Of a stretch of 64,000 bases of DNA, positions 23,171 through 64,000 are shown in pieces. How positions within the stretch are numbered: position 1 is the first letter of the stretch; each line of letters begins with the position of its first letter. The DNA is from an uncultured Elusimicrobia bacterium (GTDB taxonomy: Bacteria > Elusimicrobiota > Elusimicrobia > 2-02-FULL-39-32): NCBI GenBank assembly GCA_964523525.1, contig CAZFYO010000003.1, positions 164,147-228,146 on the forward strand, written 5' to 3'. The notes below the pieces were generated by a model. It was not told where the DNA came from. It saw only the letters and a program-made list of their open reading frames with translations, and made no database searches. The translations under genes were made by a program, and so were the position numbers.

Positions 23171-23179
23171 AATCATTCC

Positions 23180-25054
23180 ATGACCGCCCAAAGCCGGGTC
23201 TGGCTCGCGCTCGCCGCCTGCATGGCCCTGTCCTTCCTGATCTACGCACCCTCCATCAAGGCCCCGTTTTTTTTCGACGACGAAACGAATTTTATCGATA
23301 ATCCGGATATCCGGAAGCTGGAGAATCTGAAAACCCGGCTGGTGTTCAAGATGGAAAAGATGGCGCAGAACACCAACGTCCCCACGCGCGCCATAACGTT
23401 CCTGACGTTCACCCTGGAATATGCCCTCTGGGGTAAAAATCCGTCCGGCTACAGGGTCGTCAACATCGCCCTGCACGGCCTGGCGGCATTCCTGCTTTTC
23501 CTCCTGCTAAGGGAAATTCTGGCGCGATGGAATCTGGGCGAATACCTCTTTGGCGTTGCGCTCGCCGGGGCCATGCTTTTTTGCGCCCATCCGATGCAGG
23601 GCGACGCGGTCGCCTACATCAGCAACCGGTCCGACGTGCTCGCGGCCCTGTTTTCCCTGCTGGCGCTGGTCCTCTTTTCGCGCGCGGGTCCGGACCGCGG
23701 CCGGGCGGCGGCCCGTCTCGTCTTCGCGAACTTCGCATTTGCGGCGGCGATTCTTTCCAAAGAGACCGCCGCGACATTCCCTCTGATTCTCCTGGGCTAC
23801 GATTATTTCATCGCCGCGAACAGGGACGGCGCGGCGCTGCGGAATCGCTGGCGGCGCCATGCCCCGTTTTGGGGAACCCTCGCTCTCTATATGATTTATC
23901 GGCGTGCGCTGATGGGCGACTTGATGTACCAATGGGCCCTGCAGGAAGATTCCTGGACGTCAATGGAGTATCTGTCAATGCAGGTGATGGCCATTCCGAA
24001 ATATCTGCGCCTGCTTTTGGCGCCCGTCGGACAATGCATCGACCATATTCTGCTGCCTCCCGATTCCTGGCTGGAGCCCCGGATGCTTGTTGCGTTCGCC
24101 GCCTGGGCCGCGATTCTGGCGCTGGCCGCGTTCCTAATCCGTGGGACGTGGAAAGCAAAATCCACCGCCGCGCTTTTTTCATCCGCCTGTTTTGGGATGT
24201 TGTGGTTTTTCGCGGGGCTGGCACCCAGCTCCAGCGTCTTTCCCATTTTTGACGCTATGGTGGAGCGCCGTGTCTATTGGCCTTCCGGCGGCTGGGTCCT
24301 GGGCGTGCTGGCCTTTTACGCCTGGCTTTTCGACGCGACGGAAAATGGTCCGGTCAATGGCGCGAACCATTCCAAAAAAATAATCGTCTTCCTGTCGGTC
24401 CACACCGCGATCCTCGCCCTTTTCACTTTGCACCGCAGCACGCTGTACGGACATCCCGAACGGCTCTGGATAGAGGCCGTCGCCCGCTACCCCGGGAACC
24501 CGCGGGCTTACGTCAATCTGGGGTCCTATATTGAGAAAAAAAATCCGGCGAAAGCCGTTGAGCTCGGCCGTATGGCACTGAGCCTGAACCCGAAATATGC
24601 CGTGGCCCAGAACAATCTGGGCAACGCGCTTTACGCGCTCAATGACGTGGAAGGCGCCGTGGCTTCCTATCAGAAGGCGATTGAGTTGAAGCCCGGATGG
24701 GTCCAGCCCTACATCAACCTGGCCGGCATGCATTACCACGCCCGCCGGCTGAAGGAAGCCGAGGCAATGTACTTGAAAGCGCTGGCGCTCGAAACAGGGT
24801 ACGCGCTGGTCTATAACAATCTCGGCTCCATCTATTTTGAGAGGGGCGAAACGGAGATGGCGGTGGATTTTTATAACAAGGCGATCGAGACCGACGCCGG
24901 TTACGGGTTGGCCTATTACAATCTGGCTCTGGTTCTGGTTGCCAGGAAGCAATTCGACCTCGCGCTGAAAGCCATGGTGTCCGCACGTGCTCTGTTGCCG
25001 GACAACCCGGCCGTTGAGAACAATTTGCGCGCGCTGCAGGCCATGAAGCCGTGA
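23180..25054 (+). CDS. TMTC/PMT-like GT-C glycosyltransferase (DUF1736-type polytopic N-domain) with C-terminal TPR repeats, paralog 1
   Basis: ~10 TM helices in the N-terminal 420 aa. The loop-1 acidic motif PFFFDDETNFIDNPDI is the DD/DE motif of GT-C PMT/TMTC/ArnT-type enzymes. The C-terminal ~200 aa contains >=5 TPR units (AxxxLGxALxxxGxxxEAxxxYxKAxEL-type). Confidence 0.7.
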   Translation: MTAQSRVWLALAACMALSFLIYAPSIKAPFFFDDETNFIDNPDIRKLENLKTRLVFKMEKMAQNTNVPTRAITFLTFTLEYALWGKNPSGYRVVNIALHGLAAFLLFLLLREILARWNLGEYLFGVALAGAMLFCAHPMQGDAVAYISNRSDVLAALFSLLALVLFSRAGPDRGRAAARLVFANFAFAAAILSKETAATFPLILLGYDYFIAANRDGAALRNRWRRHAPFWGTLALYMIYRRALMGDLMYQWALQEDSWTSMEYLSMQVMAIPKYLRLLLAPVGQCIDHILLPPDSWLEPRMLVAFAAWAAILALAAFLIRGTWKAKSTAALFSSACFGMLWFFAGLAPSSSVFPIFDAMVERRVYWPSGGWVLGVLAFYAWLFDATENGPVNGANHSKKIIVFLSVHTAILALFTLHRSTLYGHPERLWIEAVARYPGNPRAYVNLGSYIEKKNPAKAVELGRMALSLNPKYAVAQNNLGNALYALNDVEGAVASYQKAIELKPGWVQPYINLAGMHYHARRLKEAEAMYLKALALETGYALVYNNLGSIYFERGETEMAVDFYNKAIETDAGYGLAYYNLALVLVARKQFDLALKAMVSARALLPDNPAVENNLRALQAMKP

Positions 25055-26976: not shown

Positions 26977-27016
26977 ACCCTCCCAACCGCCCAAAAAAAT
27001 CTCAAAAATTGAAATA

Positions 27017-27058
27017 TTTATCATATTGATAAATAAGCCTGATAGGTGTATTTATCAG
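27017..27058. promoter_or_regulatory. Operator-like element: two inverted repeats made of four TGATA[AG] half-sites. TTTATCA-tat-TGATAAA (27017-27033) and CTGATA-N8-TATCAG (27039-27058).
   Basis: Perfect 7-bp and 6-bp palindromic arms read from the sequence. They sit in an AT-rich island ~30-70 bp upstream of the -35 hexamer of the promoter below. Confidence 0.45.
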
Positions 27059-27085
27059 ATATTTTTCGGAATCCTGACTTGGGCC

Positions 27086-27114
27086 TTGACAAAAAGGGCT
27101 TCGGGGGGTATAAC
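27086..27114 (+). promoter_or_regulatory. Sigma70-type promoter: TTGACA (27086-27091), 17-bp spacer, TATAAC (27109-27114). Predicted TSS is ~27121.
   Basis: Consensus -35, optimal 17-bp spacer, 5/6 match at -10. Preceded by an A-rich UP-like tract. No ORF in the following ~220 nt. Confidence 0.55.
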
Positions 27115-27147
27115 TCTGCCATAGTTCACTGATCTTTCATTGGCTTA

Positions 27148-27268
27148 CACGACAATAGCACACTCCAAGTAATTGGAGGCCGCAAAGCCCTCGCCGCCAG
27201 GCGGGGCCCTCTTAACGTGAAGAGGGTACGGGCCCTGCAAAGCGCAGGGCGGCCGGGTTGCCGAAGCA
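27148..27268 (+). ncRNA. Candidate cyclic-di-GMP-I (GEMM) riboswitch aptamer in the 5' leader of the giant-gene operon
   Basis: Hairpin CUCCA-aguaau-UGGAG followed by CCGCAAAGCC (27181-27190; Vc2 has ACGCAAAGCC). Long-range pairing GCCGCC (27193-27198) / GGCGGC (27248-27253) encloses the internal hairpins CCCUCUU-aacgug-AAGAGGG. 3' element GCGGCCGGGUUGCCGAAG (27248-27266; Vc2 has GCGGGGUUACCGA). A second GCAAAGC lies at 27237-27243. The match is to the GEMM consensus as remembered, not computed. Confidence 0.4.
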
Positions 27269-27292
27269 AGTCCAAAACCTCTTGAGAACAGG

Positions 27293-27339
27293 AGCTGGAT
27301 TTTCTGCGGCAAAGCGCCCGGGAAAAACCAGCTTTTTTT
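27293..27339 (+). terminator. Putative intrinsic terminator / riboswitch expression platform. Stem AGCUGG (27293-27298) / CCAGCU (27328-27333) followed by U7 (27333-27339), directly abutting the ATG at 27340.
   Basis: Complementary 6-nt arms plus a T7 tract read from the sequence. The loop is long (29 nt) and contains a third GCAAAGC (27309-27315) that could take part in an alternative anti-terminator pairing. Confidence 0.35.
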
Positions 27340-27867
27340 ATGAAACACCACAACCTGACCCTCGAGATTAAAAAGCGCGCGATGGCCGTTCTGGCCGGAG
27401 CGGCTTTTTGCCTTTCCTTCATCGCCGTTTCCCATGCCGCCGATCCCGCCTCCTCCAAAGCATACTGGACTAATTTCCTGAACGATGGGTTGAGCGACCA
27501 GTCGCTCGACGTGCGGGACTCCGCCAACCGGCCGGTCTCCGGGCGGGTCCAAAAGGACTCCTTCAAACAGCTGTTCATCCTTACTGTTTTCCGTTTTGCC
27601 GACACCGAATTTTCTCCCGGATTGAGCCGCCTCCGCAGGATGCTTGCGGACGCCATTAACCCTCTGGCCCAGAAACTGCGGGCCGCGGCCGGACACATTT
27701 GGCAATGCGCCGAGAGTTTCGCGCTGAACCTCAACAAGCAGATCCACCGCCTCGTCCGCTTTGTCCCCTTGGGCGCGGGGGATTCTCCCGGCGGGATCAT
27801 CTCCCGGGATTCCGGCCTCTCGATTTCGTTTCAAACCGCACAATCCAACCTGCCTCTCCGCTGCTAA
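27340..27867 (+). CDS. Hypothetical small secreted protein (175 aa) immediately upstream of the giant gene
   Basis: Signal-peptide-like segment MAVLAGAAFCLSFIAVSHAADP. The true start may be the internal Met at ~27382. No recognisable domain and no obvious SD, so it is uncertain. Confidence 0.35.
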   Translation: MKHHNLTLEIKKRAMAVLAGAAFCLSFIAVSHAADPASSKAYWTNFLNDGLSDQSLDVRDSANRPVSGRVQKDSFKQLFILTVFRFADTEFSPGLSRLRRMLADAINPLAQKLRAAAGHIWQCAESFALNLNKQIHRLVRFVPLGAGDSPGGIISRDSGLSISFQTAQSNLPLRC

Positions 27868-27998
27868 TCCGCCCGCTCGCCTAGAGCGTTTCTCCCCTTG
27901 GGGAAGCGCGCACGTCTCCGAACACCGGCCGCCAACCGTCTGATTGATTGTTTTATCGCCATTGCTCCGCCCGTTTTTTGAAAGGCACAGTTTCGTTT

Positions 27999-58000: not shown

Positions 58001-61000
58001 TTATTTCAACGCCACGATCAACGTGACCGACAAATACTGGAACCGCAACCAGACCGCGAACACCAAGGTCGTGTTCGATTCCAACGATCCGTTTGACACG
58101 CTTTCATCCGATCCGGGAGAAGTCAACATCGTCAACGGTCAGGGCGTCGTGCCCGTGAAGCTCCGCACGCGCAACCTGACCACGGGCTGGACCATGACGG
58201 TCGCGACCGGACCTTCGGCGGTTGGAATCGAAACGACCTTCGCGGCGCACACTTCGACGCCGGTGCAGATCGCGCCTTCGACGCCTCTGCGCCTCGTCGT
58301 GCTGGCCCCGGGCGAACAGTTCCAGGAAGGTTCCGCCACCGGCAAGTTCTCCACCAACACCGTTCTCGCGCAGGTCGCGGGTTCCACGTTCAACGTGACC
58401 GTGATGGCCACCGACGCGGGCTACAACTTCGTCAACGACACCGCCACGGCGATCAGCATCGCTTTCAACGAGCCTTCTCCTTATGATGATGTTTACGCGG
58501 CCGTTCCTCCCGCGCTTTCGCTCGTAAACGGAACGACGACGTTCGGCATCTTCCTTTACACCGCGGAGAACAAAGAAACCAAGGTGAAGGCGTCCGGCGT
58601 CCTGACCGGCGCGACGCGTTCGTCCTCCACCGCGGCCATCCCTCTGCGGCACGACAATTTCGCGAAGTACCAGATCCTGGTCCCGCCCGAAACGAACGTG
58701 GCCGGCAAGCCTCCTTATAACATCGGCGTGACCACCGGCGGCAAGGCGGTCGTGGAGATCACGACCCAGACCGCGGGCGCGCCGTTCAACATCACGATCC
58801 GCGCGGTCGACCTCTACTGGAACCGCACCACGAACCAGTCTCCGACCGTCAACATTTACACCAGTGATCCCTACGACACGGAGATCGCGACCACGCTTCC
58901 GAACGGCGAGCGCATCCTGCCCTGGACGTTCGTGCAGGCCAACCAGGCCCCAGGCTACCGGATCTGGGTGGAAGACGGCAACCTGACGCGCACTTCGACG
59001 TCGCCCGTAATCCCCGTCAGCTATGGCGCCCCTGCGGCGCTTCAGGTCCTGCTGCCCGGCGAAACCGCGGCGCCCGGCAAAGTCCCCGGCTCCCCGGGCT
59101 ACAGCGCGCCTGCCGGCAAGAACGGCACGCCCGATATCTGGATGGCCGGCGTTTCCAGCGCGGTGCGGATCAACTCGGTGGACGTGAACTACAATATCGT
59201 CGGCAACGACGCGTCGCAGATCGTGGCCTATGCGGACGATCCCTACGACGCGCCCGCGACGTTCTCGCAGTTCCTGCAGAACGGAACCACGGTCTTCAAT
59301 TTCACGCTGGTCACGGCTTCCGGCGCGACGCGCATCCACGCTTATGACAACAGCCCCGCGATCCAGGGCTGGATCAACAACGGCAACCCCTACGATTCCG
59401 AACAGTTCATCGTTTATCCGAACTCGGCGACCAAACTGCAGGTCCTGATCCCGAACGAAATCGCGGTCCCCGGCGCGCCGCTCGGCAAGTCCTGGACCAG
59501 CATATCGACTCAGGTTGCGGGCACCGCGTTCAACGTCACCGTGAACTCGGTCGATAACTGGTACAACCTGGTGTCCTCGATCACGCCGCAGCCGCGCATC
59601 GCGGTGCAGACGAACGATCCCTTTGACACGCACCCGTCCTCGCAGATCTTGACCGCGGGATCCACGGTCTTCAGCTTCGTGATGGTGACGGCGAACCAAA
59701 ACCCCGGCTGGGTGATCCGCGCGAGCACCTGGAACGTGGGCGATCCCTTCCTTTATGATGACGGCGGTTCGCGCGCGGTGCCTCTGCGTTCCGGAGTGCC
59801 TACGCAGCTGCAGGTCCTGATGCCCGGCGAACGCGCTCTTTCGGGTGCGGCGACCAGCTACGGCAAATCCGGAACTCCCGACTCGGATGGCAACAACGCC
59901 AACGGCATCCAGAGCTTCGTGGCAGGCTCGGCCTTCGCGGTGACCGTGAACCTCGTGGACGCGTACTACAACGGCGCTTCCACCAACAGCGCCGTATCCA
60001 TCAACCTTTACACGCCGTTTGATCCCTTCGATGATCCCGCTCTGTCCGGTTTTGAATCGGGCTATCTGCCGGCCAACCCTCAGCCCCTGACGATCGGCTC
60101 CACGCAGGTGGTCTTCACCAACGTGCGGATGAACACCGCCTCCACACAGAGCTTCCGCGTGGACGGTAACCTGAGCGGAATCGCTTCCAGCACGTCGCCG
60201 ATCTTCATCACGACCCCCGCGGCGCCTTCGCAGCTCCTCGTAGTGATGCCGGGCGAAACGCGGGTCCAGGGCAAGTGGAACGCGATGCCTTACGGCCGCA
60301 ACAGCTTCACCGCCAGCACGCAGACGGTGGGGACTTCCTTCGGCGCGATCATTTACGTCACCGACCCTTACCTTAACTTCGTCTCGACCACTCTGCCGGG
60401 TTCGAACCAGATCACGGTCACGACTTTGAACGATCCTTATGACACGGAGCCGGGCAATTTCTCCATCATCGGCGGTACGGCCACGATTCCTCCTTCGGGC
60501 GCCGGCACCATCGCTTACAAGAGAGCCGGCATCGGACAGGTCGTGGCGACGGATAACCGCGCGCTCAGCCCTCTCGGAAACACGACGGCTTCGGAGAGCG
60601 CCTCCACCTTTACCGTCATCCCCGGCGCGCCTGTTTATATGCAGGTGGTCGCCCCGGGCGAAGTGGCGGTGCCCGGATGCGGACCCGGAGCGCAGGCCGG
60701 ATGCAGCGAGGGCCGCGCCAGCAACCTGCCTGACAACCAGGCGGTCGGCACTCCGTTCACGGTGACGGTCAACATCACCGACCAGTTCTGGAACGTGGTG
60801 AGCGCTTCCACCCAGATCATCAAATCTTCGTCCACCGATCCCAACGACGTGGATCCCGATACCGTCACGGTCACCGGCAGCCAGAGCTTCACGTTCAACC
60901 TGCGCCGCACGGGCAGCGCGGTCATCCAGGCGCACGACGCGGACCTTGCGTTGCCGACGCTGACCGCCGGACCCGCGCCCACGTTTGATTCCGGTTATAC

Positions 61001-64000
61001 CCAGAGCATCACCGTGACTCCCGGCGTGGCCCGCAAGATCGTCCTCCTGATGCCGGGCCAGACTCTGAACGAAGGCGCCACCACCATCGAGGAAGCCAAG
61101 TCCGGCGCGCCGGTGGAGCAGATGGCCGGTTCCCAGATCAACGTCACCGTCAAACTGACAGACGATTATTACAACGAGGTCGCGCCCAACAATCCTCCGC
61201 TGGTCGTGCGGCTCTCCACGCCGTCCGATCCCGACGCGGAAATCCGGTTCGGCGGACAGCTGGTTTCGACCGCTTCCTTCGGCGCGGGCGAATCTTCCAA
61301 AGTCTTCCAGCTCGTGATGCACAAAGCTTCCACCGCCTCCTATCTGACCGCGGCTAAATTCTCCGGCCTCGGCGCCTTCACGGATGATAATTTAACGACC
61401 GACCCCAACGAACTGTACTTCAAGGTGAGCCCGCGCGACGCGGACAGCGCGGTGGTGGACGGAACCTACGCGGGCCGCACCGGCGGTCTCCAGATTCTCG
61501 TTCCCGCCGAGACGGCCAACGACGGCATAGGCGTCTATCCGGCGTCGAAAGGCGCCACCAGCGCGGGCAAGCTCACGACCACGCTCACGGCCCAGACCGC
61601 CGGCGTGCCCTTCAACGTCACGGTGCGCCTGGTGGACGCGTTCTTCAACATATCGACTTCTCCCGCTCTGCCCATCGTCGAGCTCGGAACGACCGAGCCC
61701 TATGACACGGACCCCGTGGGCAGCGGCGTGCTGAACAGCCCGTCCCAGGGCCTGCGCGTCTATCCCGTCACCCTTTACAGCCGCGGTTCGGGCCACATCC
61801 TCACTGCCACGGCCACCACCGGCGGTTACTCGAATTTCGCGGGTGTCTCGCCCAGTATGACCGTCAACGCGTCCACTCCGACCCGCCTGCACATCGTGCT
61901 GACCGGCGAAACGCTGGTCGAAGGCAAATGGAACCAGGCTCCGCTCGGCAAATCCGGCGCGCCCACCACGCACCAGATGACCGTGGACGTGAGCGCGGCC
62001 AATGAGAGCAGCCTGGGCGCGACCGTATATGTGGTGGACGACTTCTACAACAAGTCCAACGTCACGGCCCAGACGAAAGTGGCCTTGACGTTCCCGAACG
62101 ATCCCCTGCAGGGCCTGTCGCCCAGCGTGATGCCGTCCACGCAGACCATCAATTCCGGCTCCGAAATTTTCTTCCCGACGCTGAAGCCCCGCATCGCGAT
62201 CTCGTCGTGGACCGTGGTGGCCTCCACAACGCCCGACAGCACGATGTCTCTGGCCAACTCGTCGGCCGCCTCGTCCAACCTGATGGTTTACCCGGGCCAG
62301 GCGCACCACTTGCACTTCGCCAACTTCTCGTCCACCGACATCATCGCGGGCGAAACCATCTCGGCCAACCTGCTCGCGCACGACGCGTGGCACAACCTCG
62401 TTTCCACCGGCGCCAACATTTACGCGGGCACCGTGCAGTTCAGCGCCGAAGCCGGATCGGTGTCGCCTCAGGATCCGACCGTGCCGGCCAACTATACCTA
62501 TACCGGATTCTCCGAAGCGTCGCCCGGCCTGCATAACTTCGGCAACGGCGGATTCACCCTGCGCTACGCCGGAACACGTTGGCTCAAGGCCGAGGACATC
62601 AACAATTCCCTGATCAACACCGAGCGCGGCGGCTATTCCACTCAGTCCACCATCCACGTTTCTCCGGGACCGGCCACCGGCATGCGCGTCACCGCCACGG
62701 CCTTCTCGGGCGATGACTCCGCGACCACGGGCACGATCGAGCAGGAAGCGGGCTCGCTCGACGCGCTCCCCGGCTCCCGCGGCCGCGTCCGCATCACGGG
62801 CCAATCGGTGGACAGCTTCTCGAATGCCGTTTCGTCCCAGGGCGTGCTCTTCGTGATCGAGTCCAGCGCCACCGTCGGATCAGCCTCTGATTTCGGCTTC
62901 AAATCCACTCCCAACGGGTTAGCCTGGACCGATATGGGCCTTTCGACCAGCGCGGTCACGGACGCAAACGGACAGATCGGCCTTTCGCCCCAGATTTGGT
63001 ATTACGTTTCAACCGTCAGGAACGACCAGGCCCGGGTGTGGGTGGGTACGTCGACCATGTTCAACGTGTCCGGTTTCATCACCCAGAACCTGAACATTTC
63101 CCTGCCGGTCAAGACCATCGGCGGCGACGTCAAGCAGTTTGCCTTCATCTCCTCGGTCACGGCCGTGGGCGCGGGTATCATCGTTGGACAAGGCGCGGAT
63201 TTCACGGTTGAGCGGCGCGATGCCTTCAACAACCCGACCGAAAAAGGCGCGACCACCGTGCGCCTGCACCTGGGCGACGTGGACGACGGCAGCCAGACGC
63301 AGGACACGACTCAGAAGTCTGTGCACAGCGCGTTTACCCTGGGCGGCGTGGTCAGCGGCATGACGTACGGCTCCGATTACGGTTTCTGGACGCAGGGCAA
63401 CCCCGACACGAGCCTCGGCTCCAACCCTCAGCGAACCATCGCGACGGGCCAGACGACCGCCAGCTTCCGTTATAAGGACAAGATGGCTTCCACGCCTTCG
63501 GGCGAGGACAGCCGCGTCGGCACCTGGAAGATCACGGCGCACGCCGCCGGCATCGCGCAGGCCGCGCACCAGCTGCGCGTCGACCCGCAGAACACCAGCA
63601 CGCTGCGCTTCGACAATGCGCAACGCACGATCCGCGCCGGCCGGCCCTCGCATGACGACGCCATCGCCAAAATCTTCGAAGTGGAGCTTCAGGACTCGTT
63701 CGGCAACGTCACGCTTTCAACGCGCAACGTGGACATCGTGGTCACGTCGTCCCGCACGAACTCGCCCACCAACAATTCTTTCGGTTTCTCGCGCTCGTCC
63801 GACATGTCGGTCACGGATCCCGTGTTCATCACCCATTCCTCGCCGTCCATCGTCGTGAGCCTCTCGACCGGCCAGTATTACGCCACGTTCTACTACCTGG
63901 ACACCACCGCTTCGAGCGTTTACGGCATTGCGGGATCCACGTATCCCGAGCTCCGCGCGAGCGCGACCAACCAGATGGTCAACTGGGGCCTGGGCCTCCA
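28065..64000 (+). CDS. Giant secreted repeat protein (adhesin/surface-fibre-like), >=11,978 aa, 3'-truncated by the window edge
   Basis: ATG at 28065 preceded by AAGGAG (28041-28046). Sec signal peptide MSIASVKKFFRTSLALLGAASLVLLARTTWTA. The track lists no plus-strand frame-0 ORF with a stop anywhere in 28-64 kb. All listed plus ORFs there are in frames 1 or 2, so the frame beginning at 28065 is open to the end. The translated repeats are coherent. Every long minus-strand ORF here (Arg/Gly-rich, low complexity) is consistent with antisense of a high-GC gene. Confidence 0.85.
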   Translation, partial: MSIASVKKFFRTSLALLGAASLVLLARTTWTADTYWPNANIGTDPELWHGETAFSLNGQTNLFDFANSTTRQMAVSFTAPTLSTMTLQEVLLPWSQSNTNQTQTVRVRVADDDNGDPSGVYIATGTLVIVNEPNTGKWRSFDMTGGGPAPTLSAGSVYHLVIDKTVGGRNTVQGIPVRRSIATALNDPSALKRVVSTATAATPNLAMNVSTRGATNEAWMPQDAEPTFLVKFGVTLPNLFYWGNPYPSLSDNTNNGAPAGQFNDYSPRINQALYKSILLRSSAGGGTKKLSRLNVLVGKDTTTPAESLKISIERTDTYEMVVPTVTFVRGTDFASVDEVVWKTINLASNSVVLAEGVPYRIKFFSPNSGNNLGYRLYIHAACDAGGVECNLDTVYSEATFDGDNTAIEESSDSGVTWTPNYGADINFQMRFDNDVPLMAITQPAQNDEWNSIPVISGTAEDQDKTDHALSSRTVEVHIKNITNGSNEEWSGTAWAPPTGADTDNWNSTGAISYTNGFNTHNWDYRIPAANWTPQAKYNVRARAYDAVRNVSTVYSTTFTYSPYRGSPEAPDSLLTSIVDKSTVAVVNGLIGTANDVNPLTDILGNGFTGVSNVKVYVKDTDSNVWWNSGASTFSSTVETSLFASFNSQNPGGNYDWQITAIGNLNFIHGKRYAVYTRAIDNSNVSIATGVVENLISTITFRVDRATPTAAITQPAHQGSAPSAIIISGTAVDSVSGVQRVEYMIQDLSGSNPGFYLNSAGNGWSISEPSDWPDADMGVQFSTWSAAPGTTLTSGDYVVRARVYDIVGNNTAGTYSLTVTSITVTVDNTPPTSAVTVPTHTYVGAFTAISGTANDNANLNTGAQINLTVYQSTSGNFWYDPDGDGAIVGRWRNVLSSITITSVPNSPSWNWTYTPPAHMFRTGGTYVLCSTATDTSTNRQTGGNVVYTVQYDTQTPVAQFQKPEFGLGWIRSLPTISGTSWDAFDGLAFSSISAVDVEIREDPTITGDYWNNTGQSYGGSQLWNTATLGAQNGGARSWSLTGTVENAFRLLGATYTITIRAQDNAPIPSSGYSKNLQNPTSSYVFLWDAERPTTTITSPTLSRHNDASWSSLYSVTNSSAIQGYAIDGSNRSGISAVQMRIDRNNLTASHWDFATQVWTAGLSSDSDWVSIPVVRYASSSTWSYAALKSSALADTGSYSIYVRSRDNALAFDNNAANNFNWNWQNSSTTFIYDVTTPVSVSTQPTTSLTFINSWDQAVGIRGTASDPNSGVINQVNVGVRRNSDMKWWNTSNQDFTDSPGPTLVSTNIVAGAPYQFWYIPFRQNDVSVRNELTHNTSYAILIQAVDSLAQSESLGKAYTTFYFDIAKPTAAVSWPDSNGGLNNRSYNSVTSASGTIADNIPVTVGIVEPLDASLIEVQITTAGSDGTYFYQGPNVAQGSRWSKTQKWLSNSDGQVNITYNSTLGTWQYAETGCNGSLCVGDDSVWQNGTQYGIRARATDKAGNVQTAFTNFQTTFTFDNSGPSAVSVTNPAPAHTHRRSLTTISGTATDNGGVSSMDFRVCMTSDTNTCWDGSRWAVNASTYNQAYFDGTAWGAPISVSAWQDGYQYSIIPRARDGVLPAGNATVGTAKTFRWDSTVPTSGIQFPVPNPPDNYYKSSQMGSIVGTADDTSPGTLSKVELAITRLTLGGAAEVEFDYTNRFDDSQRWNSAAPGTPLYFNAAGNPTLASWIYSIDFSTWFETGRSYQIRVRAEDAGQNVLSGGTGNQSIVRMSSFTIDNTAPLSASTSPVANDIVSTLAAIFGTASDSGGADISTVSIHIRQTNTGTRSAANWNGSGFVEGADNASSFANWFMVSGVDAATHTWRYATVTGTEWAGGTGVNEAYQYRVVSRAEDRAGNHEVSRTTITFVYDARKPASNFTNPPYNNYFTSYTLTYISGTATDPGANGVTGIFVTGVRAKIQRMDTGEYWDAAQAPGLRWQTAITSNNASAADGSFDGTSNEPWRYDISDGEFWVSNTSYTITSVARDAATVPGPNVETAVPSRIFIYDPVLPGATIQAPVSADHYNRHSKPLLTISGTATDAAPGSIDRVIVKIQSGTGVNYWTGSAWDTSITSLTATLGAGTTNWNFDIPGTAWEDGNIYKVYAYAVDRASNNITGASQIVKTFTMDLTTPTAVVISPLDDASNGIASIQGISGTASDPAPGQIMTVEFQIEEKGGGYSESSSKFLNSGKTAFDASSNTFHSATFLTGSTWTLNTSVVPWGNGNYRVYMRVTDRATNYNTKPGAAGPFSAMVEFKFESQPESYITFPAHDSYKRPSQVSAPSAISGTAKDGAAKVDAKLVDCGDDFDCTTGADNYGWWGSSWSANATGYITTTLDGVPSPDTWNFSVPQASWTALGQSRKYLLVSRSYLGITPEHAVDPNPSGAQRNAKNFVVDNQNPTVGVTRPSNNVAFTSAALTSVSGTASDASPGALDTTSVKFRIVRSSDSAEWNTGSQVFVNPPGDLFSATNLGGGNFSFTNADFTNSRPWVDGVNYAIYIQANDSAGNPAGSAVEAFNTFVYDISVPSAAILIPAANNLFIRPLSTINGTVIDVDPDVTRNDISSSGVHAVHLTIQSLGPNQPGDYFDGASFGSGVSTLTATLTGNNWSYNNAGLYNFLANASNAGNTYTIRTWAVDRASNASINNASVGFASMTFTIDPSSPTMAVTSPADGSKYRTNNVPQIVGTAVDSPTGAGKASAGLKNPGLSADGGIIVEVSYLHGGSTYYFDNVTPWTTVFTTRQPTTQTPWNLTTPAQAAYDDVISNHGDKQIRVRVRARDAVRLSDNSGYDSNLADYTGYTSFIIDGTPPVSSVTTPAPGALLNALTSIAGTANADLSGLAGLDVRIATPSAAPASWWTGSSWSATEFWVPATVDSQTAWHYDISASMLVSSRTYQFASRAYDVVGNTQTAITVSSFTFDNVPGVVVSTLPVTSQYYGGSGVTPFTGNYTPRPLSMIAGTAEDALGGVRRVELEIRQSSAVLYYDGTGFAALSSSWNVTNQVTYHTSSATWRMVNLPALHSSSRYLLRARMIDNALNISSDPSNGSTIDFLYDTAYPTSTLLTPASPYIRSISVISGTVQDEQVADPNNTTGRNAGFERVEIAIQEVGGGLYWDGAGGGSFTQPESWYAVDGGFVVSQSSVNTWYKTTLPAFSPGESYWVRSRVIDRARNVSLELVTSTYTFLYDPTPPTVTIGYPESFRLRQSSVAFSSGTASDTGGAGLNVVQMKLRLNTAGGSGGTNGKFWDPSTSRVTPENNNNFSKNEDDDTAWFSANGTSIWSTGSFAATWVDGSSYSIVVRSQDRAGNYSASYATVSFTIDNGLPSSYVSLPSSAVIQGLPLGRVSGTASDSGTGVVNSVQVAVKLLSGAGDMWLSGGGQFNVNQLNPNWLDQATGGVNFTPGAPAVWDRPIPAASLVSGASYYVISRAVDEVANQEGSGNGNMNTIRGSTFTYDRNVPTATVTIPLQLSYNNASLLPRISGTAADLLSVDSSVNRVAGIDLFIQQATAAVYWTGGGWSATPSGISISTASLPYGNTWGYTLSGAALRHNATYFIWVRAQDLAGNEQTSFAAGSSSKTFNYDIGAPTSSIQGLTNFAFYRKETITTISGTAEDEGEIGRVFTSSYSIKQASPELWWDGSTFTSPTETFFALNHDGSGMWSTGTMINRFVDGREYAARFISVDRAQNVEALKAMTSFYFDISTPSVQIQMPVHGAGYNTLGTISGTAGDNFIGLNSIQRVEYAVFVDTGGYYRSGPRDFEATTHYYNLATADMANWSQWSATNIPWSTGRTYTLDVRALDRAGNIQASFTVGVDSLTFTFDSSSPTIAIESPADASVGVFTTPRLGTLAAISGTAADLNGIRRVEVQIQQGAAGDAPARYWNGTGFSTVGSSWNVAAGGTSWSYAVPGLSNDRSYRIEARAVDNTDLVTVNISSADFVFDTSSPTAHFQFPADGSIVNGLTTISGTSVDGNTNYPSTVGTVRILVRQNSNMRWWNEGGSVFDSPVPIDITPAFGAPNWTYTGISTSNLAPDTSYYVTIRAQDQSSPVNLTNYYIYNATFTFDNSAPNVAIGQPQHNSFYNGSGVFTASGTAADVGLRPSISRTEVAIASGTGEDTWWNGTNFQGGATYYIDVATAGAGTLNWQYLGFTSTGMAVTGRNFLIYARAIDGAGNVSAVAGPRRFTYDAERPTATIVYPAVAPNNKLTLSNMTISGTAMDAVAGLRTVEVAFSSNVANDAGGWLSGANTFTNNTPIYFATAAWTGSVWQSTVALAAQGAMVNGNSYKVSVRATDVGGLMHITSRTIVYDSGVPVSGTDIPKSTDAYVRSLNTISGTAADLAPNAGNITNVQVAISTASGGSFSNWNGSAWDIADENLPLTWTWFSATPVNSPFNDNTSEPWYSTNSTPTWIAGVTYRIHVSAEDDGGNRQKDLVANVFKTTFTFDNINAVSTITAPAALQSTQTLRSVEGTMSDAISGIQKVQIAIRHPDDTNFWNGSAFNPYDAVTSWNDVSVFTSSWIYTNMPQSYVDQTVYRIYVRAIDRANNVPSDPNFNTTGVPVRIDVTSPTSSANRVHTGLGAFVLTSNSTAYISVDISSISGVASDGGLGSGVSEVKIRVRRSDGNYLNSVQTGWDTNASSVDFPFFPTTGLTAWSRDLLSANFTDGYRYQLITRSKDFSNLQNVETILTTAAFVIDRTTPIAYVASPAGSGNNRFFNNTLAIISGTVFEDNTVGGGVASGLRRVEVEIRDVTGDAVGNAKPYWDFEVTNGTWTAVQTSTPVTIVSAATGVSTWTLPSTLFPSEWQRDMGDNRLYEIRARAYDFAANTDSYRVSLSTFDITAPTATVLLPNTDPWVQTLPTISGTATDPVYGRIGVRGARIAVLMISGPNAGQWWQDDSLGAPGYVTSAQPIYFDSDGFNEGSGEWVYKSTHPAIWQTNETHRIYVAAKDKAGNLQSPTTTQYQFLYSAPPAAVGLTKPTNNRKYISLTSLAGTANNTVTVKTEVQIERKTDGAKWSVAGSSWGVYSSSYNTVCDNAAGCGNWSFSSVPSDWPVHGSSYTVTIRGSNSINQTNSESRDFAFDTTSNGGTGKPVSVSTQPTALFATSIFNIAGTAADQSNLAGVQKVEVSIQRYRNTLTEEDDPKYYWNGSTWTSAGQQYLNASLVQAAANQWNWVYSVQFSTMFAEGYGYKIWSKVTDNAYDTNDNLVGNSDEPSPAGLSFITYDIQNSTPAWTSLNHGDVRSAFSVTSGTVRDSANAGADLAQAGGNQIGQVQIAIKAVDSFNWGAGAFLTPRYWDGTSFPVGGTNENWLPTNLSTGGILAGGILTSSWTYPAQGLSLPTVGNGGFVDGRIFTVYVRSLDKADNNYTAFTVGSASHTFTADVTAPSAHFVTPVSGQKLLALNPISGTAADPVPSAGVSVAGIGRSSLSITYVQGLNTFFWTGSAWQQVVADSETWIIGGSTPTPPPGFVDLYTTSATWERPGVTWLTDKLYTIRARASDRAIPDANTGGIATVVVTIDTTTPASAVVAPSASPISSLTEITGTANADLAGLANVHITVTRSGDNFYWTGSSWSVNGATLPVNFAGTSGDITWSTDSLATANLVSGTTYTIRAYATDLVTPSANSQLPPGPASYKNTPSSFSFLFDNTPPSISISSPVSQGFYGPQKTLANVSGTALDALVATRKVELEIYNFSRDRYWDGHGFNFVSSSFVHLTGNLISWTTGMTWITNSTYGVTARAYDSLNNSSTTARINFVYDSTVPVVSQVMNPWPTTGYFRIQSQLNTISGTAHDDFAGIPNASLKDIRVAIQDVDDGDGFPWWDGSAFAAASADYRMTSSTISLTGNAPFSYPFGSDVVPSWAAGHKYDVRVRATDRSDNVSAVYSSTFTFDTSSPTVYIQDPNVATESSLSTLSGTALDASGGPQSGSLRVVKVRVKRNSGTPGFWDINSQGFTLTTLLDETTGWFDADTSDAYANWTTTQAAGANAFINAFSYSVQAIAYDRAGSSSPISFSTFTFDSGKPASFVSFPADGSFIRSLNTGITGTAQDPGDISSITQIRIAIKRLGGASDSNGDPNRYWDGGATVFSAAGNPYNFNGPISPTGGPVFDWIYGVGILPTAKLTSGVSYFITTEATDASGQVENDYYSGSSTFTFDNSSPVSGMVRPPLGGIVVTNLPYYKAMTVISGTADDYTFLPSDRQLNSGLVGGSAFTRISIRDLTQGATYWNNASSIFQDAPANISESGSFFDVTFTGASSGTWSANAGALNSQMVSGHTYIVKSSASDNIGNVQSGVYVSSFVFDASSPTLAITAPVAFPAGQYTGLAQINGTTQDNPIAPLSRVGMSSVTLQIQDLTQGTTYWNGNAFVDFPTSTINVTVTGQGTNLPWSYDTTGVPWVSGRSYRIHTRAGDMLDNRSSTQTVDFRFDFTAPQSASTKPANGEGFNATTNILSHLAGTAIDLPNYSSAPFNSGIYRVQIQLWKEKSAPNNDVYNAGTDEAFDPVQVSSFAAGNSLQWIDISNVSPVFTSSPSSINWYYPVSDAAFASGESYRLKVHTLDWLRNEESTPALVASNFVRFSKDAAPPVSYVQYPAEGQSYINPTVISGTSADVTSAIRRVQIRIRRQNTPSDLYWEGSATQWQNNPSTWVTTSHFNVWVTSVDWQYQDVPATWPSGTTYYVNVRSEDTADNVETAFTTRTFTIDNVAPQVYIQKPLNNSGFAPLNPLSTISGTASDDLAGVNRVYVQIKDLTPGASWFNGTDFTAANPPEIGSVQASWLTASNTFWYFNTPVPYQSGRYYRVVAKGYDNAGNAMAGADFVVGQTSNTFSYDSSSATAYLASPADNRSYNAATLPNITGTASDDFSGVQNVLLQVRDITQGTTYWNGVSFVNSVQTIELAVQGSSQPLPALSTYSYNTASLASAMITGHRYTINVRGRDVAQNVQNASLSPTYTVLFDTEPPTGYFTKPDSAFHSAANPLDFLVGTSTDTPNDILAAPATAEIRIRRNPPGTEYWDGLGWTSTANTWLSSAPALSWSLAKPTPDWEDDTQYRVEVRVRDSAGNLGPSTTFQISGSLFFTYDSGLPAAGIGTPVLPNINSLTQITGTAQDPNGPNGSVDKSLIHSVKIAVQDRNSLNWWNGTLINIDNPTFTGAGGFSAEPAAFWIAMATTTETQGGGAISWSTASPSLPLVAGSTYTVYVRAKDNALNFNTPISSVTFRYDNTTPASRSTAPADGSVVSAVPAIAGTAADSGSVSLVTQVGVSIGALFGAATRYYQQGVGFVPGSTEYFNPAVIAGGANWTYNDGLLTYEAGRRYIVRSQARDIAGNQEDFSAVTPASFLFDNFKPTAAVTSVNNGDYIAAAALTISGGASDSAFTQPVSSASGLAELTDGGVQVRIQDLSGGNPTSGRWWAFESDFSGNDASAAWINALTGTPASWTLTDTVINTKLASGRPYMIQVRAKDKASPANVGPSSNGTDSNFIGVAHDSKTFIYDPDAPTSYVQFPPVTTVRKLNAAGITQISGTASDALSGVPANPANIEVSMQEVSPNTAYWNGAATFTATSETYYAVDSMSGINGTWTRSSLPTFQNGTTYRIRVRARDAALPTGNLQTTNFSTSVFIYDTQLPTSTVTNINENQFVTGFSNQIVGTSVDNFEVRGVSVTISSGPTSWWNPVSEKFDSPSAIYQHAVATGPWTWVFFSTNLASGYTYRIYSFATDGAGNTNITRISTRTFVFDSGVPDSYVTYPPDGSFIGASKLTRIVGTSMDPPSGGAPANVKVYLWEDVGAVGTKETGVDRWWDGTTWQTSETPVATNATITNAPNPGDWELTADLPPTLSAAENGRRYKIYSQALDAALNTENVSLGDVLFRYDEIVPNAGIVVPAGGSLYYNGLPTISGTAQDTLNISSVQVRIEGQGIGFWDGVAFGGDNTNWRMAVGTTATNNTITWTYTSPDWAANGNIPYFVEARAFDVAGNTRTLSANTFTFDNQRPVSVTSYPVTSDLRFSSMNAIAGTANDPGSFRSGIKNVRIMIRRSLDGNYWSVGDSDWTISTDPDFNISPTQTLHTSSAVWVYSHPNFVDKTAWLPSGQTFYIYVRSEDNSRYQDFSTMTLRELNFSTRTFVFDNVAPVSRLYLPADKRAYKAASFTNISGTATDATSPISTNAIKMSLKVEDDPIGQRYWDENGSTFTFTTETWWQAGTFMNSTWTYLGFATSKLENGRHYVFRSTAADVVGNTESPSAQSRFLYDTIDPQSALVAGDNTTPDPANAADLAFGTDLVVQGRANDPGFVDSSEPDRDDIEGTGSGVGQPPTSDSAWHTGRLQILILRDVGGIPVGAEPVLYSDPGKGEAGDFYWNGSTWVAATGGEQWQDMTYIAGAVTSTWRYDDIANTNIGIPGQTSAWWKGDQYVAWTRAIDNAGNTQGSASSIASGAKFTISNNVDHFHVTGLPASLEAGADQGMTITAHDSDHAVASNFNGLINFYVDGNPGGPESMRASVGAPGDDLGLPAQQSMTNGLLTLADNLGMRLRKAATGRFVRVETNSPVGGSIRSGNSATFDVTENVSVSPAPRVMVLLGGQQYAPGKTSAPEGRVNNSTPTYRTAGDTLQITLRAVDKYWNTLVSSNPQVALTITDPFVANVSSANPQLSFGSATVTAEVRTVGNWAVNAQGAGLYTNNANPSSDFEVKPGAATRLLARFPGESRQEGKTSAPAGKSGTPTALQAGTTITITVHGVDSYYNTDPTSNMQIIVETPFDNADTEPAPRNLVNGTTHFDITYLTAGTQTVKIRTTAIAGANSTYITPNPVTVYPDGEQHLLILMPGETRISTRTAPGKTGAATALTAGTTYGATVHLVDRFFNVVDSTNDFNTDVVWPTVKVTLSDPFDQAWGYEPAAGNIGPPFNGTRVFQVRPVTKNLLSNATAHASDDNFESLYTNDTSSGIRVNPGSATRLQTVVLGETPVEGSNFANGKQGSPTARTAGNSYNISVRATDDYWNLVTSEGRDVDVESSDPYSDNPSTASLGGGLQTFTTFIPRRATAALNVFAYDASAFNPKLTASTIAVQINPNTATKLMVLLPGELLEQGKGPYDTGFTGGRSGSPTPVTAGTSIIATVRAVDDYWNHNTAPSVGVTATSSDQNDIEPSNLALVSGTTQFTFTLVSAGTQTVIATDLTAAFALSTSAVITVNGGPADRLLALLPGESLNRGKPPYPAGPNWGPAYNEGGKNGQPDEDGISGNGVQDFIAGKSYKMTVYATDARWNPDTANSYPVALTSNDPSSLNILGNKNLVAGTTTFDFTIYTAVTATGTARNLVVISTDPAPDWTYTSTFTLVPNSFSKFRMMGPGETRDPGTVAGKAGTISLSTVNVNMQVILDATDDWGNLVSTNPSVTVQTDDAYDSPDPISPTLVNGTSIFFLIPKTARHSGLNSTPATTPTVARTTVTYAGFPSASIAYSVNANATENYLLVLVPGETSLGGSAAGRTGTVQTQVAGANFVATVQAVDSRFNLRTDNPAVTISISSSSDNYFDTFNSIAITNGQGTISPVRFLSQGNHTISVSAAGWQVRNDTSSVVPVVPSSFTQLQVLLPGETAVEGSATGKAGAVFPSGLLAGTTFNITVRAVDNRFNLVPSISSTVIINGSDVYGTYPQGTSGALSSSQRIFQAVFVTSATAAQISAYVSGNPPGISTGTSTGFSVLASTPEQLMVVVPGETLVPGLPPYNMGGGKNGTPNTQLAGVSTNVAVYLTDRYYNPVSTNAVPSVLAGIRVTDQYATTSPASVNLQLSQGTTGFAVTFRSASTIGWKITASTLTGVRYNDYVTANIPVAFGSPSKLLLFTPGETRLPGSVTGKGGSINGQTVDSTFTVTVLLTDSDWNIVTTTNASVFIRTLDQYDIDPATFVVTNGSGTADINFHTAGNWNLVVTTAAGNNLTSYTNPTVSAATGTATKLQIIVPGETHVPGYDFGKTGAVITQQTSENYFNATINVTDKYWNRNQTANTKVVFDSNDPFDTLSSDPGEVNIVNGQGVVPVKLRTRNLTTGWTMTVATGPSAVGIETTFAAHTSTPVQIAPSTPLRLVVLAPGEQFQEGSATGKFSTNTVLAQVAGSTFNVTVMATDAGYNFVNDTATAISIAFNEPSPYDDVYAAVPPALSLVNGTTTFGIFLYTAENKETKVKASGVLTGATRSSSTAAIPLRHDNFAKYQILVPPETNVAGKPPYNIGVTTGGKAVVEITTQTAGAPFNITIRAVDLYWNRTTNQSPTVNIYTSDPYDTEIATTLPNGERILPWTFVQANQAPGYRIWVEDGNLTRTSTSPVIPVSYGAPAALQVLLPGETAAPGKVPGSPGYSAPAGKNGTPDIWMAGVSSAVRINSVDVNYNIVGNDASQIVAYADDPYDAPATFSQFLQNGTTVFNFTLVTASGATRIHAYDNSPAIQGWINNGNPYDSEQFIVYPNSATKLQVLIPNEIAVPGAPLGKSWTSISTQVAGTAFNVTVNSVDNWYNLVSSITPQPRIAVQTNDPFDTHPSSQILTAGSTVFSFVMVTANQNPGWVIRASTWNVGDPFLYDDGGSRAVPLRSGVPTQLQVLMPGERALSGAATSYGKSGTPDSDGNNANGIQSFVAGSAFAVTVNLVDAYYNGASTNSAVSINLYTPFDPFDDPALSGFESGYLPANPQPLTIGSTQVVFTNVRMNTASTQSFRVDGNLSGIASSTSPIFITTPAAPSQLLVVMPGETRVQGKWNAMPYGRNSFTASTQTVGTSFGAIIYVTDPYLNFVSTTLPGSNQITVTTLNDPYDTEPGNFSIIGGTATIPPSGAGTIAYKRAGIGQVVATDNRALSPLGNTTASESASTFTVIPGAPVYMQVVAPGEVAVPGCGPGAQAGCSEGRASNLPDNQAVGTPFTVTVNITDQFWNVVSASTQIIKSSSTDPNDVDPDTVTVTGSQSFTFNLRRTGSAVIQAHDADLALPTLTAGPAPTFDSGYTQSITVTPGVARKIVLLMPGQTLNEGATTIEEAKSGAPVEQMAGSQINVTVKLTDDYYNEVAPNNPPLVVRLSTPSDPDAEIRFGGQLVSTASFGAGESSKVFQLVMHKASTASYLTAAKFSGLGAFTDDNLTTDPNELYFKVSPRDADSAVVDGTYAGRTGGLQILVPAETANDGIGVYPASKGATSAGKLTTTLTAQTAGVPFNVTVRLVDAFFNISTSPALPIVELGTTEPYDTDPVGSGVLNSPSQGLRVYPVTLYSRGSGHILTATATTGGYSNFAGVSPSMTVNASTPTRLHIVLTGETLVEGKWNQAPLGKSGAPTTHQMTVDVSAANESSLGATVYVVDDFYNKSNVTAQTKVALTFPNDPLQGLSPSVMPSTQTINSGSEIFFPTLKPRIAISSWTVVASTTPDSTMSLANSSAASSNLMVYPGQAHHLHFANFSSTDIIAGETISANLLAHDAWHNLVSTGANIYAGTVQFSAEAGSVSPQDPTVPANYTYTGFSEASPGLHNFGNGGFTLRYAGTRWLKAEDINNSLINTERGGYSTQSTIHVSPGPATGMRVTATAFSGDDSATTGTIEQEAGSLDALPGSRGRVRITGQSVDSFSNAVSSQGVLFVIESSATVGSASDFGFKSTPNGLAWTDMGLSTSAVTDANGQIGLSPQIWYYVSTVRNDQARVWVGTSTMFNVSGFITQNLNISLPVKTIGGDVKQFAFISSVTAVGAGIIVGQGADFTVERRDAFNNPTEKGATTVRLHLGDVDDGSQTQDTTQKSVHSAFTLGGVVSGMTYGSDYGFWTQGNPDTSLGSNPQRTIATGQTTASFRYKDKMASTPSGEDSRVGTWKITAHAAGIAQAAHQLRVDPQNTSTLRFDNAQRTIRAGRPSHDDAIAKIFEVELQDSFGNVTLSTRNVDIVVTSSRTNSPTNNSFGFSRSSDMSVTDPVFITHSSPSIVVSLSTGQYYATFYYLDTTASSVYGIAGSTYPELRASATNQMVNWGLGL
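29380..53410 (+). repeat. Class-I tandem domain array inside the giant gene: ~60 divergent ~110-145-aa beta-sandwich (Ig/FN3-like) repeats
   Basis: Each unit has [PS][TS]xx[IV]TxPxxxxxxxxxxxx[ILV]SGTAxDxxxG[IV]xxVx[IV]x[IV], then [YW]W[ND]G[ST]x[FW], then W...Y, then Y.[IV].[VA]RAxDxAGNxx, then F[TV][FY]D. ~60 [ILV][SAIT]GT[AS]xD anchor motifs were counted in the translation. Confidence 0.65.
53410..62300 (+). repeat. Class-II tandem domain array inside the giant gene: ~22 ~130-aa repeats with consensus hxhLhPGETxxxGxxxxxxGxPxxxxAGxxFxhTVxAVDxYWNxV...SxDPxDxxP...LxNGTxxFxFxLxxAGxxxI
   Basis: Recurrent LMPGETRIS / LLPGELLEQGK / LVPGETSLGG / LLPGETAVEGS / IVPGETHVPG / LLPGETAAPG / VMPGETRVQG etc. 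at ~390-nt period, each followed by VxAVD.YWN and DP(F/Y)D motifs. Confidence 0.6.

Follow-up and report, generated by a model that had tools for sequence, protein, structure and literature searches.

A GEMM-I class leader before a giant Ig-like repeat gene in an Elusimicrobia genome, and a neighbouring pair of TMTC-like GT-C/TPR genes

Results

The locus

The stretch analysed here, 64,000 nucleotides (nt) of an uncultured Elusimicrobia bacterium (hereafter the window, in whose numbering positions are given), carries on one strand two adjacent open reading frames (ORF1 and ORF2) for membrane proteins ending in tetratricopeptide repeats (TPR), followed by a promoter, an RNA leader, a gene for a small exported protein and the beginning of a giant gene for tandem immunoglobulin (Ig)-like domains, which is still open at the window's end. 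All the elements listed in a preliminary description of this stretch were found where it had placed them or a few bases away. That description had joined them into one system, in which ORF1 and ORF2 would form a dedicated glycosylation and export module for the giant protein, and cyclic di-GMP (c-di-GMP) would gate its expression. We favour, with a probability of roughly 0.7, two independent neighbouring units: a surface-protein operon run by a riboswitch, and a separate pair of GT-C-type genes. We set the two apart because the pair is packed together with the genes upstream of it, and the giant gene has a promoter and a riboswitch of its own. Moreover, as judged by sequence comparison, the module of promoter, GEMM-I aptamer, small ORF, sometimes a HEAT-repeat gene, and giant gene recurs in metagenome-assembled genomes (MAGs) of Elusimicrobiota and Endomicrobiia.

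The leader RNA

The leader holds a match to the c-di-GMP-I family (RF01051) that is complete over model positions 1-87 and scores 37.7 bits against a gathering score of 35, the single above-gathering Rfam match in the whole window. The P1a hairpin with its GNRA loop (GUAA) is present, the model consensus AAaGGCAAAc reads AAUAGCACAC here, and when the window is aligned with two related loci (L015 and L049), compensatory changes are seen in 8 of 34 predicted pairs, three sequences lending modest support. Assignment to c-di-GMP-I-GGC (33.4 bits, gathering score 59) was dropped, as the match is below threshold and position 47 is A, not G.

Among the positions equivalent to the ligand contacts of Vc2, A47 and C92 are kept (A27184 and C27261) and G20 is replaced by A27157. 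The G20-to-A change defines the GEMM-Ib aptamers that sense cyclic GMP-AMP (cGAMP), and a protonated adenine lets such RNAs, and likewise the Vc2 G20A mutant, bind c-di-GMP as well (PMC6140456). Because A replaces G20, the window aptamer probably responds to 3',3'-cGAMP, or to cGAMP and c-di-GMP alike. At related giant-gene loci the G20 equivalent is A in L015 and in both aptamers of L013, and G in L010 and L012. Thus, of the proposed c-di-GMP gating, riboswitch control is supported by these four loci, and c-di-GMP gives way as the sole candidate ligand to the cGAMP-type or bispecific signature of A27157.

The aptamer also belongs to a GEMM-I subclass with a large branched P2 insertion (window 27190-27252; L015 ~925-996; L049 ~2640-2722; also L029). 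The insertion is made of three hairpins, with a conserved UACGG between hairpins 2 and 3, and measures 55 nt in the window, 74 nt in L015 and more in L029.

Downstream of the aptamer, two mutually exclusive arrangements were predicted. In the minimum-free-energy fold (-86.1 kcal/mol), an antiterminator forms between 27253-27273, which is the aptamer 3' strand, and 27296-27321. In the alternative, the aptamer is closed and a hairpin forms at 27292-27332, followed by U7 (27333-27339), the separate folds summing to -80.3 kcal/mol. The U7 run directly abuts the ATG at 27340. On this folding we lean, by a little more than even odds, towards a transcriptional OFF switch.

The less probable choice is a conventional c-di-GMP ON switch, by which a biofilm adhesin would be expressed when c-di-GMP is high, as described for CbpA of B. 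thuringiensis and for C. difficile adhesins. Such control of surface adhesins by c-di-GMP riboswitches is established (PMC7423583, PMC6200980), the RNA is an RF01051 member, L010 and L012 retain the G, G20A aptamers are still able to bind c-di-GMP (PMC6140456), and a HAMP-GGDEF protein is encoded 17 kb upstream. However, the window aptamer itself has A at this position, and its predicted folds place the aptamer 3' strand in the antiterminator rather than in the terminator, which is an OFF architecture. In L010 and L015, moreover, a Shine-Dalgarno-like sequence abuts or overlaps, by eye, the 3' closing strand of the aptamer, which suggests ligand-dependent occlusion.

The HAMP-GGDEF protein (9132-10517, - strand) has GHPLGN at its specificity position and GGEEF at its active site. 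Canonical diguanylate cyclases carry Asp at this specificity position and Hypr cGAMP synthases Ser or Thr (PMC6456294); the Asn found here fits neither class, and may bear on which dinucleotide the riboswitch sees. No Hypr GGDEF was seen in the 64-kb window.

Beyond these loci, the A20-type core (AATAGCACAC-N5-GNRA-N8-CGCAAAGCC) was present on at least 120 JGI metagenome contigs (L016-L135), only three of which (L029, L049, L099), among those listed, carry the small-ORF family downstream. From these contigs, a GEMM-Ib-like variant is widespread and would control many other genes.

Promoter and operator-like element

The sigma-70-type promoter named in the preliminary description can be read directly, with a TTGACA box at 27086-27091 and a TATAAC box at 27109-27114. 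A consensus promoter scan had skipped it because the scanner demands T at the last -10 position, here a C; terminator and promoter scans within 14800-28100 returned intragenic consensus matches only. A TTGACA promoter also precedes the riboswitch in L010, L012, L013 and L015.

Further upstream lies a perfect 9-nt inverted repeat, TATTTATCA-N3-TGATAAATA (27015-27035), with a third half-site at 27049-27057. This palindromic element looks like an operator. Its half-sites sit 30-70 nt 5' of the -35 box, in a 171-nt spacer of 38% GC as against ~60% for the genome. The AT-rich palindrome was not found upstream of the relatives' aptamers.

The small exported protein

The small ORF that follows the leader bears out its earlier reading as a gene for a secreted protein. 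Its G+C content at third codon positions (GC3) is 0.74 in frame against 0.46-0.59 in the other frames, which is typical of window genes, its N-terminus is Sec-like by eye (KKR, a hydrophobic core and an SHA/AD end), and it has syntenic homologues. The protein has no Pfam or NCBIfam match. The window, L010, L012, L014 and L015 encode one family, joined through L015 at pairwise E-values of 1e-5 to 1e-4 (window ORF to L015, 1.3e-5; to L014, 7e-4), and the family also follows the aptamer in L029, L049 and L099 (E~1e-16). Its members share the motifs [LF]D.RD..NR and a C-terminal LR[CL]. The small ORF of L013 is unrelated.

Between the small ORF and the giant gene, at 28001-28020, there is a 20-nt alternating purine-pyrimidine run, CGCGCGCACGCGCGTGCGCG, which is palindromic, prone to form Z-DNA and the sole alternating run of at least 14 nt in the window. 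A similar run, CGCGCGCGCGTGCGTGCG, occupies the equivalent spacer of L014 (7594-7611); L010, L012 and L015 have none.

The giant protein

From 28065 onwards, one frame runs for 35.9 kb (11,978 codons) without a stop, where the other forward frames have 193 and 313, and its GC3 of 0.82 is typical of genes here. The encoded protein is rich in Thr, Ser, Ala, Gly, Val and Asn (T 11.6%, S 10.7%, Cys 0.1%), and its N-terminus (MSIASVKKFFRTSLALLGAASLVLLA..., residues 1-~31) is Sec-like by eye, so that a giant secreted repeat protein of at least 11,978 amino acids (aa), as first described, is indeed predicted. Behind the signal come an N-terminal domain (aa ~32-430), an Ig-like array (aa ~433-11630) and a region homologous to the Elusimicrobia protein P0178.

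Self-comparison and iterated profiles resolved the array into two repeat subtypes, the first comprising 61 units of ~131 aa (aa ~394 to ~8300) and the second spanning aa ~8400 to ~11400; a single profile joins both, with 84 matches. The units, which are just 30-39% identical, are tandem Ig-like beta-sandwich domains whose fold matches include Bap and the Fn3-like modules of CbhA. In sequence, the repeat profile matched SiiE in the PDB at E 7e-6, and there were weak matches (E 0.0025-0.03) to protocadherin-15 and classical cadherins that span the F-G strand motif. The suggested comparison with Ig, cadherin and FN3 folds is answered by an Ig-like array with faint cadherin- and SiiE-like sequence signatures. 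PDB sequence searches with the N-terminal domain and the tail gave nothing useful.

We take the protein, most probably, for a fibre or adhesin of great length on the cell surface. Its Sec-like N-terminus argues against an adhesin of the type-1-secreted RTX type (LapA/SiiE). An RHS-toxin C-terminus was also considered, two homologues being named 'RHS repeat domain-containing' by NCBI, and was dropped: the RHS protein encoded in the window resembles none of the giant homologues, and YD repeats are not enriched.

Relatives and gene neighbourhoods

Word-indexed searches with the N-terminal 500 aa of the giant protein and with a 58-repeat profile came back empty, which reflects their insensitivity: an exhaustive HMMER search with the same profile succeeded, retrieving 11,020 proteins at an E-value of at most 1e-3, of which 1,284 reached E<=1e-30. 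The top matches, 2,000-8,000 aa long and with scores of up to 2408 bits, hold 20-55 domain copies. Under the name 'Ig-like domain repeat protein, partial' they come from Elusimicrobiota, Endomicrobiia and Endomicrobiales MAGs (e.g. MFA5858611.1, MDI6756459.1, MBI2069550.1). A propensity of Elusimicrobiota for huge proteins has been noted (PMC11573180). The giant protein is related to P0111 by its N-terminal domain (26% identity, E 3e-7) and to part of P0178 by its tail (35% identity). By these homologies and the recurring module, too, the window would probably be placed in an Elusimicrobiota-like genome.

We compared six giant-gene loci, which include 10 kb of upstream sequence in L010, L012 and L013, 8.4 kb in L014, 2.5 kb in L015 and 1.1 kb in L011. 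RF01051 lies directly 5' of the small ORF in four of the five with at least 2.5 kb upstream, always above gathering and on the giant-gene strand (L010, 54.1 bits; L012, 38.9; L013, 70.0 and 45.8; L015, 36.3), and in three of these four the small ORF is homologous to that of the window. A GT-C/TPR gene was present upstream of the giant gene in none of the six (1-10 kb upstream).

These loci differ in other respects. L013 has its two aptamers (7782-7866 and 9075-9180; both A20) on the same strand, 1.3 kb apart, before one giant gene, with a Y1 transposase gene on the opposite strand between them. In five loci a HEAT_2 gene separates the small ORF from the giant gene: L011 (530-1105), L012 (7760-10000), L014 (7862-8410), L015 (1851-2528) and L029 (3432-4052). 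The window, L010 and L013 lack it. In L012 and L029 a B12-binding radical-SAM domain precedes the HEAT gene or is joined to it in a fusion. L011 (1109-21587) carries tandem giant Ig-repeat genes (3,492 aa and at least 4,956 aa) only 32 nt apart, either a split gene or a pair. By analogy, another giant gene may follow that of the window.

Table 1. Features of the locus, in window coordinates
Feature	Position	Strand	Basis
GFO_IDH_MocA oxidoreductase, class-III aminotransferase, DUF1015 and chorismate-binding enzyme genes	17949..23170	+	Pfam matches, ORF coordinates
ORF1, GT-C-fold membrane glycosyltransferase-like; C-terminal TPR array, aa ~440-620	23180..25054	+	Pfam, structure model, alignment
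ORF2, paralogue of ORF1, TPR array; motifs D50-D51, HPLQTEAVAYISHRSD, SKE, AERRVY	25051..26976	+	Pfam, alignment
AT-rich palindromic operator-like element, three TATTTATCA/TGATAAATA half-sites	27015..27057	.	Sequence; not conserved in relatives
Sigma-70-type promoter, TTGACA, 17-nt spacer, TATAAC	27086..27114	+	Read from sequence
GEMM-I class cyclic-dinucleotide aptamer, GUAA tetraloop, branched 55-nt P2 insertion	27147..27265	+	RF01051
Putative expression platform, antiterminator versus terminator hairpin + U7	27253..27339	+	Folding; mechanism inferred
Small exported protein, 175 aa	27340..27867	+	GC3, Sec-like N-terminus, syntenic homologues
Giant ORF, at least 11,978 aa, open at window end	28065..64000	+	ORF, repeat profiles, homology

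The GT-C/TPR pair

ORF1 and ORF2 are 34% identical paralogues that overlap by 4 nt. They close a block of six genes on one strand (17949-26976) whose intergene gaps are 18, -8, 34, 9 and -4 nt. From this spacing they are probably the distal end of an operon with the four genes upstream.

The Pfam signal of both proteins consists of TPR only (TPR_1/TPR_2 and related) and is confined to the C-terminal ~180 residues. Their N-terminal 440-450 aa have no Pfam match even at E<=10; in particular, neither protein matches DUF1736 (PF08409), which covers the loop between transmembrane (TM) helices 7 and 8 of TMTC proteins, nor PMT, PMT_2 or MIR. NCBIfam gave sub-threshold TPR matches only, and in a PDB profile search with the full-length proteins TPR proteins swamped the result. 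Structure was more telling: the ORF1 model has ~11 long helices ahead of residue 425 in a GT-C fold, and both proteins are nearest in fold to protein O-mannosyltransferases, with Pmt4 and Pmt2 as best structural matches at 10-12% identity. The odd helix count would place the TPR arrays in the periplasm.

The first outside loop contains a DD motif, PFFFDDETN in ORF1 (D33-D34) and PFVFDDFSN in ORF2 (D50-D51). In an alignment of 39 homologues, D33 is invariant and D34 is kept in at least 90%, and the family alignment further keeps RP, HP..(T/G)(E/D)..Y..R.(D/E), SKE and (A/V)ERR(V)Y motifs. In TMTC1-4, the acidic DD/DE motif of the first extracytoplasmic loop is the catalytic/metal site (PMC7801869), and by alignment the conserved motifs of ORF1 and ORF2 match TMTC1-4 catalytic and ligand-binding positions (PMC7801869). 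Going by the model, ORF1 and ORF2 are GT-C enzymes of TMTC-like architecture that lie outside the TMTC and PMT families proper: GT-C because the structural check succeeds, and outside because no DUF1736 or PMT profile matches. The preliminary description of a TMTC-like pair is thereby upheld for the GT-C fold, the DD motif and the TPR array, and its hidden Markov model check against DUF1736 and PMT came out empty.

At E<=1e-5 the pair has 74 homologues, mostly unnamed or called 'tetratricopeptide repeat protein', some named 'protein O-mannosyl-transferase' by JGI. DUF1736 (PF08409) is found in only one of them (P0057), and weak PMT_2 (PF13231) in some. The nearest relative found is L009, a 3.1-kb Logan contig that stops 20 nt past ORF2. 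It keeps the tandem pair, its two genes being 57% and 59% identical to those of the window and overlapping, as here, by 4 nt. Such conservation fits a heterodimer like Pmt1-Pmt2, by analogy. A GTDB genome scan with a single GT-C protein returned only a 29%-identical gene in Ca. Magnetominusculus, and a metagenome scan with the ORF2/L009 alignment returned no match.

The neighbourhoods of three GT-C(TPR) relatives are of the glycan-pathway kind, with genes for GT2, DUF2304, methyltransferase and further PMT_2-TPR proteins, and a giant Ig gene is missing from all three. Just one large secreted protein was seen next to a GT-C relative, in L007 (12149-17452), where a 1,767-aa multihaem cytochrome with an MtrC/MtrF-like domain is encoded on the opposite strand.

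These neighbourhoods bear directly on the idea that the pair is a dedicated O-mannosylation-like module for the giant protein, a counterpart of the O-mannosylation of cadherins by TMTC proteins. In its favour, the genes are adjacent and co-directional, the GT-C fold is nearest that of protein O-mannosyltransferases, the TM-plus-TPR layout and the DD, HP..E..Y..R.D, SKE and AERR motifs are TMTC-like, and the giant protein combines a Sec-like signal and 22% Ser+Thr with repeats that resemble, weakly, cadherin/protocadherin extracellular domains and, at the E-value given above, SiiE. However, the six giant-gene loci have no GT-C gene upstream, the aptamer loci listed (at least 120) encode none either, and the GT-C(TPR) relatives neighbour glycan-pathway genes, not giants. 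The pair is also packed with four upstream genes, has no Pfam match to DUF1736, PMT or PMT_2, and is unaccompanied by a gene for a polyprenyl-phosphate-sugar (GT2 donor) synthase among the window ORFs scanned, whereas the giant gene has its own promoter and riboswitch. We consider a dedicated module improbable. The preliminary description had itself set out beforehand that finding the pair beside unrelated genes in relatives, and giant genes without it, would count against the coupling; essentially this pattern was found, and the coupling is not conserved. A fuller version, in which an ORF1/ORF2 heterodimer would be a bacterial TMTC analogue that O-glycosylates the cadherin/SiiE-like Ig domains of the giant protein during their Sec-dependent passage through the periplasm, with surface display set by a cGAMP-type riboswitch, is about as improbable.

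Elsewhere in the window, just before the six-gene block, a 974-aa RHS/YD-repeat protein is encoded (14957-17881, + strand) that is unlike the giant protein or its homologues, and at 2068-4734 (- strand) a gene for an 888-aa protein joins an MFS transporter domain to a spermine/spermidine synthase domain.

Integrity of the giant frame

That the giant ORF is an assembly artefact of collapsed or chimeric repeats, or a non-functional remnant, is very unlikely. In favour of such a reading, the sequence comes from a MAG, the gene continues past the end of the window, and all homologous giants in the databases carry the label partial. Against it, the longest DNA repeats (at most 52 nt and at most 86% identical) are too short and too divergent to mislead an assembler, the repeat units are just 30-39% identical as protein, the stop-free frame and its GC3 are those of a gene, and the architecture is common to more than 1,000 library proteins. 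Independent Logan assemblies from two runs also agree with the window, at 100% identity, over three stretches (22101-26241, 26411-28213 and 26979-30950), and that of the second run exactly reproduces the first 2.9 kb of the giant gene.

Discussion

We propose that the locus comprises two units that happen to be neighbours. In the first (from ~27086 to beyond 64000), a sigma-70 promoter would drive a leader with a GEMM-I class aptamer. When the aptamer is closed by its ligand, its 3' strand would be unavailable for the antiterminator, and the terminator hairpin with its U7 run would then end transcription just ahead of the start codon. When the ligand is absent, transcription would read through into the genes for the small and the giant protein, both of them presumed Sec exports. 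In the second unit, ORF1 and ORF2 would be transcribed with the four upstream genes and would not be dedicated to the giant protein; they probably form a heterodimeric, polyprenyl-phosphate-sugar-dependent glycosyltransferase acting on periplasmic acceptors. This proposal builds on observed folds, Rfam membership, repeat architecture and synteny, whereas its ligand, switching direction, export route, surface location, enzyme activity and operon boundaries are predictions.

Several points weigh against this two-unit reading. The relatives are distant (26% identity for the giant N-terminal domain, and at most 29% for GT-C homologues outside L009), and the only close one, L009, ends 20 nt past ORF2, so that the missing synteny is weak negative evidence. 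The giant protein, Sec-type and with 22% Ser+Thr, has to pass through the periplasm, the compartment in which GT-C/TPR enzymes act, and could therefore be a substrate of the pair. In L014, no aptamer was detected, although both the small ORF and the giant gene are there. A20 aptamers can be bispecific, so that c-di-GMP may be a ligand as well; the direction of switching is a prediction from thermodynamic folding, and by the usual logic of c-di-GMP one would not expect an adhesin to be under an OFF switch. Lastly, the C-terminus of the giant protein, and hence its anchoring and secretion, lies beyond the window.

The surface-protein unit resembles CbpA of B. thuringiensis (PMC7423583) and the C. 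difficile regulon (PMC6200980) in its RF01051 leader, terminator-type platform and secreted, repeat-rich surface protein. It differs in the length of that protein (at least 11,978 aa, with ~84 Ig-like domains), in the conserved small exported protein between leader and giant gene, in its Elusimicrobiota lineage, and in the A at G20, the branched P2 insertion and the predicted OFF logic. With the Geobacter GEMM-Ib RNAs Gs1761 and Gm0970 (PMC6140456, PMC8835794) it shares the GEMM-I fold, the replacement of G20 by A, a single change that moves recognition towards cGAMP (PMC6140456, PMC8835794), and the conserved A47 and C92. Unlike these RNAs, which control genes for extracellular electron transfer, the window aptamer precedes surface-protein genes, and its cGAMP selectivity is a prediction. 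Geobacter GEMM-Ib riboswitches are mostly ON switches.

Like SiiE of Salmonella (2yn3), the giant protein has long tandem arrays of Ig-like beta-sandwich domains with conserved acidic residues at the domain boundaries. Proteins of the SiiE type have no signal peptide at the N-terminus and leave the cell by type 1 secretion; the giant protein, in contrast, begins with a Sec-like sequence, and its repeat is longer (~131 aa). Its closest counterparts are the Elusimicrobiota and Endomicrobiia giants, with which it shares the repeat family, a related N-terminal domain, the upstream small ORF and the GEMM-I aptamer. It is longer than any of the listed Elusimicrobiota homologues (all partial, at most 7,989 aa), and its locus differs from L011, L012, L014 and L015 in lacking the HEAT-repeat gene and is the only one with a GT-C pair upstream.

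As for the pair, ORF1 and ORF2 share with TMTC1-4 (PMC7801869) the ~11-helix GT-C domain, the DD of the first loop and the C-terminal TPR array, and keep basic and acidic residues equivalent to TMTC D169/K219 and to the arginine of AER(V). Among the PMT/POMT enzymes are their best structural matches, Pmt4 and Pmt2, and their paralogue arrangement recalls the Pmt1-Pmt2 heterodimer. Unlike these groups, they have no Pfam match to DUF1736, PMT, PMT_2 or MIR; their identity to Pmt structures is only 10-12%, and their bacterial relatives are annotated as plain TPR proteins.

Adhesins run by c-di-GMP riboswitches, the A20 GEMM-Ib aptamers of Geobacter and annotated Ig-repeat giants of Elusimicrobiota are known already. 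The module of aptamer, small ORF and giant gene in Elusimicrobiota, its alternation between A20 and G20 and the branched P2 insertion appear to be undescribed in the literature we searched.

For the GT-C pair, our analysis documents a conserved bacterial paralogue pair of TMTC-like GT-C/TPR enzymes, and removes the attractive but unsupported inference that it is a dedicated adhesin-glycosylation system; were the TMTC-analogue reading true, the animal TMTC-cadherin relationship would gain a prokaryotic counterpart. The abundance of A20 aptamers in metagenomes (at least 120 loci) suggests that cGAMP-type or bispecific signalling extends well outside Geobacter. For Elusimicrobiota and related uncultured phyla, in which giant proteins are unusually common (PMC11573180), the module would provide a regulatory handle on such proteins.

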